Shown here piece after piece: positions 36,775 to 37,405 of a DNA stretch of 64,000 bases. Both the position numbers and the translations under genes were made by a program. The notes beneath the pieces are model-generated. The model saw only the letters and a program-made list of their open reading frames with translations, did not search any database and was not told the origin of the DNA. The stretch comes from Escherichia coli (GTDB lineage: Bacteria; Pseudomonadota; Gammaproteobacteria; Enterobacterales; Enterobacteriaceae): assembly GCF_003334785.1 (NCBI RefSeq), contig NZ_QOWV01000002.1; one strand, 5' to 3'. Position 1 is the stretch's first letter. The number at the start of each line of letters is the position of its first letter.

Positions 36775-37197
36775 TTAATCCCACCAACAAGTAACCGGAT
36801 GCATACCCACAGGGACTTCAACCCATCCATGCTCCGTATCTTCTGACCATCCTTCCCAGCACTCATCAGGGGCAATTTCTTCTACAAACCAGCTCTGAAC
36901 TTCTTCTGGTGAAGCAGTGGTGATAACTAAAATACTTTCACTAAAGGGCCAGTCTGGGTCATCGAACATCGTAATTTCTACCAAAACATCACTAACATTG
37001 TTACGCTCACGTATTTTCAGAAAATGGTGATAGATAGCTTGCGGAGATTGTTCTGGAATCACATTGCAACATATTGAACCATGGATATTATTGTCAATAA
37101 AAAAATCCTCAAGAGATAACAATGGACGAGGAGTATCAGGATTATTAACATCACCATTGATATTAACAAGTTGGGTAATGCGTTCTAAAGGTGTCAT
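36775..37197 (-). CDS. yfbO: Uncharacterised protein YfbO, acidic Trp-rich C-terminus
   Basis: ORF 36775..37251 (158 aa max); start placed at MTPLERITQ (37197), may lie up to 54 nt upstream. Confidence 0.7.
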   Translation of the reverse strand: MTPLERITQLVNINGDVNNPDTPRPLLSLEDFFIDNNIHGSICCNVIPEQSPQAIYHHFLKIRERNNVSDVLVEITMFDDPDWPFSESILVITTASPEEVQSWFVEEIAPDECWEGWSEDTEHGWVEVPVGMHPVTCWWD

Positions 37198-37405
37198 AAT
37201 TATTCCCTGAAATAATATATTCATCAAACGAATGACATTGTTTGAATTCATTAGCAGATAAATAGTGACAATTCCATACGTATTATTAGTTTCAAGAGCA
37301 TCATAACATGAATGTTAAGCAGGAAAACGTGAGATATTCAGTCAGGCCGGGTCGTTATCCAGACGTTGTTATATTTAATATCATAAATATTTAAAGGGGT
37401 TTGAC

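Follow-up and report, generated by a model that had tools for sequence, protein, structure and literature searches.

YfbO of Escherichia coli K-12, a member of the PF27222 family, as a possible orphan immunity protein

Among the 'y-genes' of E. coli K-12 that still await characterisation is yfbO. The original prediction, made from the DNA letters and translated reading frames, was that the acidic, tryptophan-rich C-terminus of YfbO may mark it as a protein of the inhibitor or immunity type, possibly orphan cargo carried together with YfbP and YfbM. Whether YfbO is an immunity protein, and if so how it comes to stand in E. coli beside no recognisable toxin, is the question considered here. The window analysed is a stretch of 64,000 nucleotides of E. 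coli (contig NZ_QOWV01000002.1, assembly GCF_003334785.1), in which the gene order is nuoM, nuoN, yfbP (-), yfbO (-), yfbN (+), yfbM (-), yfbL (-) and yfbK (+); the features discussed are collected in Table 1.

A minus-strand ORF of 158 amino acids is present at 36775-37251, with the translation that was originally quoted. Its 3' part stands as the gene, but its 5' end does not: an internal methionine is favoured, giving a protein of 140 amino acids rather than 158. The likely, indeed almost certain, start is the ATG at 37197, because K-12 yfbO is 423 nt long in RefSeq, an AGGGA sequence lies upstream of this codon and approximately 50 homologs of about 140 amino acids align from the sequence MTPLER onwards. 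The 18 codons upstream of this ATG are probably untranslated. A scan for promoters and terminators gave nothing above the shuffled expectation.

Table 1. Positions of yfbO, its motifs and its neighbours in the 64,000-nt window
Feature	Position	Strand	Basis
yfbP-yfbO-yfbN cassette, ~2.56 kb, strain-variable	35834..38393		Junction alignment
yfbP, downstream neighbour	35868..36716	-	Weak TPR match
yfbO CDS	36775..37197	-	140 aa + stop, RefSeq annotation; member of Pfam PF27222 'YfbO'
C-terminal WWD, family hallmark, last residues of the protein	36778..36786	-	52-sequence alignment
Trp-rich acidic C-terminal segment, residues 83-140, within the folded domain	36778..36951	-	Composition, model, alignment
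N-terminal family motif, residues 28-45, LEDFFIDNNIHGSICCNV; consensus LEEFFxGNxxxGSIGCNL	37063..37116	-	52-sequence alignment
18-codon upstream ORF extension, counted in the 158-aa ORF, probably untranslated	37198..37251	-	No homolog aligns; RefSeq starts at 37197
AGGGA, resembling a Shine-Dalgarno site, 6 nt upstream of the 37197 ATG	37204..37208	-	Sequence reading
yfbN, divergently transcribed neighbour	37406..38122	+	Only a weak UBA-like match

The composition that had attracted attention was confirmed: the last 58 residues of YfbO contain seven tryptophans, 13 aspartates or glutamates and no lysine or arginine (P = 2.6e-5 for at least seven tryptophans per 58 residues, against a background of 1.5%), and the 140-amino acid protein has a pI of 4.1 and a tryptophan content of 5%. 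The description of this segment as a tail, however, has to be abandoned. AlphaFold2, run with a 52-sequence alignment, placed all 140 residues in a single alpha/beta domain that ends in the conserved WWD (mean pLDDT 95.2, pTM 0.89, all residues at 70 or above), and strands at residues 85-93, 112-115 and 133-138 cross the tryptophan-rich segment. Conservation in the alignment is 100% for W83, 79% for W103, 98% for W138, 88% for W139 and 96% for D140; all 52 members have a pI between 4.05 and 5.5, with medians of 4.3 for pI and 3.5% for tryptophan, so the tryptophan-rich and acidic composition is a property of the family. The hallmarks of the family are the N-terminal motif (Table 1), in which F32, F33, N36, S41, I42 and N45 are kept in at least 92% of the 52 sequences, a central WPFSD, and the final WWD, which also terminates longer fusion proteins; every family-conserved residue is retained in the K-12 sequence.

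Foldseek against AFDB50 returned family members only, and the fold relatives of YfbO included no known or solved immunity protein. Several AlphaFold-database neighbours that have the YfbO fold (TM 0.8-0.9, 21-41% identity) are labelled DUF4253 (PF14062), but the DUF4253 HMM matches none of 69 YfbO family members and the link consists of these labels on structural neighbours. Another such neighbour, from Clostridium neonatale, is a 296-amino acid 'TPR protein' that contains the YfbO fold.

All of the homologs returned, including a cluster representative 98% identical to YfbO, carry the precomputed tag PF27222 'YfbO'. Against the Pfam-A set scanned here, which is without PF27222, YfbO matched nothing even at E = 10, and there was no match in NCBIfam, PHROGs or PDB sequences, nor any match of PADLOC models to YfbO, YfbP, YfbN or YfbM at E = 1. 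As far as the searched resources show, the family has no functional annotation. Our own HMM, built from the 52 members, matched 32 ORFs in the homolog loci, almost always along the entire profile and with E-values of 1e-22 to 1e-58; exhaustive phmmer searching gave 423 cluster representatives at 50% identity (E up to 0.001). When species genomes were scanned, members turned up in Planctomycetota, Alpha-, Beta- and Gammaproteobacteria, Myxococcota, Verrucomicrobiota, Bacteroidota, Bacillota, Actinomycetota and Melainabacteria. Many members bear membrane helices or other domains at the N-terminus; the N-terminal extensions of 24 longer members contained no Pfam domain. A phage origin for YfbO was rejected, as no homologs occur in INPHARED phage records, PHROGs or IMG/VR. 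The catalogued immunity HMMs (SUKH, SuFu, Imm1-74, Barstar and others in Pfam-A) matched neither YfbO nor any of 69 relatives, and this outcome of the profile searches proposed as a check weakens the original prediction.

In E. coli, yfbO forms part of a variable cassette that spans from the nuoN terminator to the yfbM stop codon and takes the place of approximately 17 bp of other strains; where the cassette is missing, yfbM lies 66 bp after nuoN. Among 5426 complete E. coli genomes, 994 (18%) harbour yfbO and 82% do not. Of these 994 copies, 968 are at least 99% identical, and 978 have 80% or more of the gene in a single piece; interruption by IS1, IS2, IS3, IS5 or IS903B is common, as are truncated proteins. 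The GC content of the cassette genes is 0.38-0.43, compared with 0.51 for the window and 0.57 for nuoN. The best database matches to the cassette were repeatedly split by different IS elements (IS1A, IS2, IS3, IS5 and IS903B), from which it appears to be an IS landing spot. In two further E. coli loci, from O55:H7 strain DEC5D and a pig isolate, yfbL after nuoN is frameshifted and yfbK is absent, with elaD a pseudogene in one and intact in the other; it is thus the whole nuoN-rbn interval that varies between strains, and not just the yfbO cassette. A 100%-identical yfbO also occurs at 280635-281054 of CP137936.1, a 365-kb record labelled as an E. coli plasmid, where the probable explanation is that chromosomal sequence was assigned to a plasmid, or else that the replicon is chimeric and very large.

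These boundaries do not bear out the grouping of YfbO with YfbP and YfbM. The variable unit is yfbP-yfbO-yfbN; yfbM, a DUF1877 member (E = 3e-33), lies outside it and is kept in strains without the cassette. YfbP, for its part, is confined to Enterobacterales and a few metagenome sequences and in Leminorella has no YfbO gene beside it, so the cassette genes are not a conserved unit. Homologs of YfbP, YfbN, YfbL and YfbK were found in none of the other loci, and YfbM/DUF1877 was found once, in Bacillus sp. FJAT-27225, where a DUF1877 gene (15632-16126) is 7 kb from the YfbO homolog; this single case may be coincidence. In E. coli, yfbO has no toxin gene as a neighbour.

The genomic context of homologs in other species, the other check attached to the original prediction, gave a divided answer. 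Toxin or immunity loci were found at five of approximately 45 distinct homolog neighbourhoods, in unrelated lineages, and the remainder consist mostly of unrelated genes; we infer that five is far above chance, which is a judgement and not a computed statistic. One of the five is in Methylosinus sp. Sm6 (L032), where the YfbO homolog (3840-4313) begins 9 nt past the gene for an Rhs protein with YD repeats, an Rhs_assc_core domain (TIGR03696; 86.7 bits against a cutoff of 32.5) and a 240-amino acid C-terminal tip, and is followed by more Rhs tip modules. A cognate immunity gene classically occupies such a position. The arrangement was seen in this one neighbourhood, and neither in the E. coli window nor in the other ~44 neighbourhoods; the tip concerned had no Pfam match and only a single homolog. 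As observations on the same locus, the region from 1885 to 10190 contains at least three different C-terminal tips with small genes after each, two of the products have C-terminal ends that resemble each other, GGFLLYPNKLN(T/S)N...(V/S)Y(S/L)K, and the tip preceding the YfbO homolog contains RPD...EVASK, a putative counterpart of the PD-(D/E)xK nuclease motif.

The other four neighbourhoods are polyimmunity arrays, in which established immunity families recur around YfbO in a minority of the neighbourhoods sampled. In a Planctomyces (L023), a 356-amino acid protein with a terminal YfbO domain is encoded between two Rhs tips, accompanied by a toxin that reads by eye as HINT/HNH-like and a SUKH-like gene (E = 8e-5 to a crude SUKH HMM). 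On a 7.8-Mb contig (L001) the order is LHH toxin, SUKH, SUKH, YfbO, and Tox-REase-5, Imm52 and a third SUKH are no more than 7 kb away. In Bacillus sp. FJAT-27225 (L037) the homolog is preceded, at a distance of 46 nt, by a SUKH gene, and the L007 homolog shares its array with DUF2625, Barstar and DUF2199. Heterogeneous polyimmunity loci of just this type have been described previously, with LHH toxins paired with SUKH and barnase-type toxins with Barstar; that survey does not mention YfbM/DUF1877 and lists no family motif like that of YfbO (Zhang et al., 2012; PMC3482391). Literature on DUF1877, DUF4253, DUF4304 and similar families contained nothing bearing on immunity.

Some further hints are weaker. 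DUF2625 is near YfbO both in L007 and in L045, the latter also with DUF6348 and DUF4265; L031 and L038, one from Bacteroidota and one from Gammaproteobacteria, each have a DMP19-like gene immediately next to YfbO; and DUF2262 follows YfbO in a Clostridium. Two homologs belong to same-strand arrays of small genes, one next to an integrase (L039) and the other next to a recombinase on a Priestia plasmid (L043). The small-gene array of L038 includes a 120-amino acid gene (9979-10341) with a faint EF-Ts match, which by phmmer has no homology to E. coli YfbN, itself with a weakly UBA-like N-terminus. Scanning 80 further metagenome loci by phmmer with our own Rhs, SUKH and other references identified no new Rhs or SUKH neighbours, many of these loci being short and such local queries being insensitive to divergent immunity families. 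The large upstream genes in the metagenome loci encode FtsK, aldehyde dehydrogenase, HEAT-repeat proteins and a weakly Fic-like protein. HEAT-repeat proteins are encoded directly upstream of YfbO homologs in L010 (839-1369), L049 (4766-7738) and L083 (5729-7663), by weak matches below family cutoffs, and the one contig identified is planctomycete; in E. coli, the gene after yfbO encodes the TPR protein YfbP.

By comparison with the immunity proteins of polymorphic toxin systems (SUKH/SMI1-KNR4, Imm1-74 and Imm-barstar; PMC3482391), YfbO is likewise small, cytoplasmic, acidic and patchily distributed across phyla, one homolog (L032) comes directly after an Rhs tip and others are in arrays with SUKH, Barstar or Imm52, and its family has many orphan copies and some fusions to other domains. 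It differs in having no sequence match to those families and no fold match to a solved one, and a far smaller share of its members is found next to toxins. The small-gene arrays beside the integrase and the recombinase invite a second comparison. Acquired immunity genes are found clustered next to recombinases, and these YfbO arrays have that layout, although most of their genes are unannotated and their status as immunity genes is unproven.

Given that relatives of YfbO are sometimes found in toxin-immunity clusters and that no matching toxin lies nearby in E. coli, an orphan immunity protein is the reading we prefer. We put it at an even chance that PF27222 is an uncatalogued immunity family of polymorphic toxin systems, with K-12 YfbO an orphan on a small acquired cassette. 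YfbO is a small, cytoplasmic, acidic protein of a single alpha/beta domain, and its family would serve Rhs-type and related toxin systems, each member binding an incoming toxin domain in the cytoplasm and so blocking it. The K-12 copy would have arrived by horizontal acquisition of the 2.56-kb yfbP-yfbO-yfbN cassette without a cognate toxin gene beside it, a view in keeping with its accessory distribution, its low GC content and its frequent interruption or truncation, and would at best protect against toxins delivered by other bacteria. Family membership, fold, cassette structure and gene contexts are what the analysis shows; toxin binding and protection in E. coli are predictions. The original prediction of an immunity-type protein thus survives in part, through the association with Rhs, SUKH, Barstar, LHH and HINT genes; the lack of any immunity HMM match and the solitary setting of most homologs count against it.

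Observations on yfbO itself come from two preprints. The strain table of a retron preprint lists strains with p1-yfbO and p1-yfbN for the validation of blockers of the toxin RcaT and, according to its text, all selected blockers relieved RcaT toxicity, a result that fits a toxin-neutralising protein. In a droplet RB-TnSeq preprint (bioRxiv 10.1101/2025.09.29.679331), Keio deletion mutants of yfbO and of yfbL were resistant to phage N4 in plaque assays, ASKA plasmids restored sensitivity, and there was no cross-resistance to seven other phages. Resistance to N4 is the only direct loss-of-function phenotype of yfbO in E. coli and is explained by none of the models considered here. A bolder form of the immunity reading would accommodate both results: PF27222 would be an immunity family not catalogued before, whose fold lacks any solved relative, the N-terminal motif and the free WWD would form the toxin-binding surface, and YfbO and YfbN would be broad toxin blockers that act also against RcaT and influence N4 infection. 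We consider this improbable.

A quite different account makes YfbO a stand-alone protein of the cytoplasm, for example a binding module or small enzyme, whose conserved partner or ligand has nothing to do with interbacterial toxins; immunity arrays, on this account, simply gather small mobile genes. The majority of homologs do occur singly amid unrelated or housekeeping genes; a Pfam scan of 89 immediate neighbours returned mostly housekeeping families, dominated by hydrolases, oxidoreductases and GNATs, and around the homologs of Bacillaceae and of L038 lie genes for assorted small enzymes such as GNAT, NUDIX, DinB, GrpB and SnoaL. The motifs are strongly conserved across phyla, and many members have N-terminal membrane anchors or unrelated N-terminal domains; a conserved ligand or partner, as opposed to diverse toxins, would also account for the near-invariant polar residues N36, S41, N45 and D140. 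Chance, on the other hand, hardly explains an Rhs gene at 9 nt together with four more toxin or immunity arrays from unrelated phyla; the searches gave neither an enzyme-like fold nor a Pfam match; and inhibitor proteins typically have such a uniformly acidic surface charge. We regard this account as unlikely, though one to be taken seriously.

The N4 phenotype suggests instead that K-12 YfbO could be mainly a host factor for productive infection by this phage, possibly in conjunction with the M28 peptidase YfbL, since both deletions confer resistance and both are complemented from plasmids. In an enterobacterial contig with a 69% identical YfbO (L002, 8001-8423), yfbO follows straight after yfbL on the same strand with neither yfbM nor yfbN between them, an adjacency that is notable because of the shared phenotype. 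Set against this, the phenotype comes from a single preprint that proposes no mechanism, and outside Enterobacteriaceae YfbO has no YfbL-like companion gene; the absence of yfbO from 82% of E. coli genomes means that it is no general requirement for N4. Exploitation by a phage is moreover a phenotype rather than a selected function, and would be compatible with the immunity model; as a main role for YfbO we consider it doubtful. It is more doubtful still that E. coli yfbO is without function and decaying, the remnant of an islet gained by horizontal transfer, as its restriction to 18% of genomes, its low GC content and its many IS-interrupted or truncated copies might suggest: the near-identity and completeness of almost all copies, the retention of all family-conserved residues in K-12 and the phenotypes reported in two preprints make this very unlikely.

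As yfbO is an accessory gene, missing from 82% of E. coli genomes, the practical impact of the orphan immunity reading would be modest. If confirmed, it would add one more family to the catalogue of immunity proteins, and for E. coli K-12 it offers a frame for two puzzling results, the blocking of RcaT and the resistance to N4 on deletion. Were YfbO and YfbN broad toxin blockers, genes of interbacterial immunity would be linked to the outcome of phage-host encounters.
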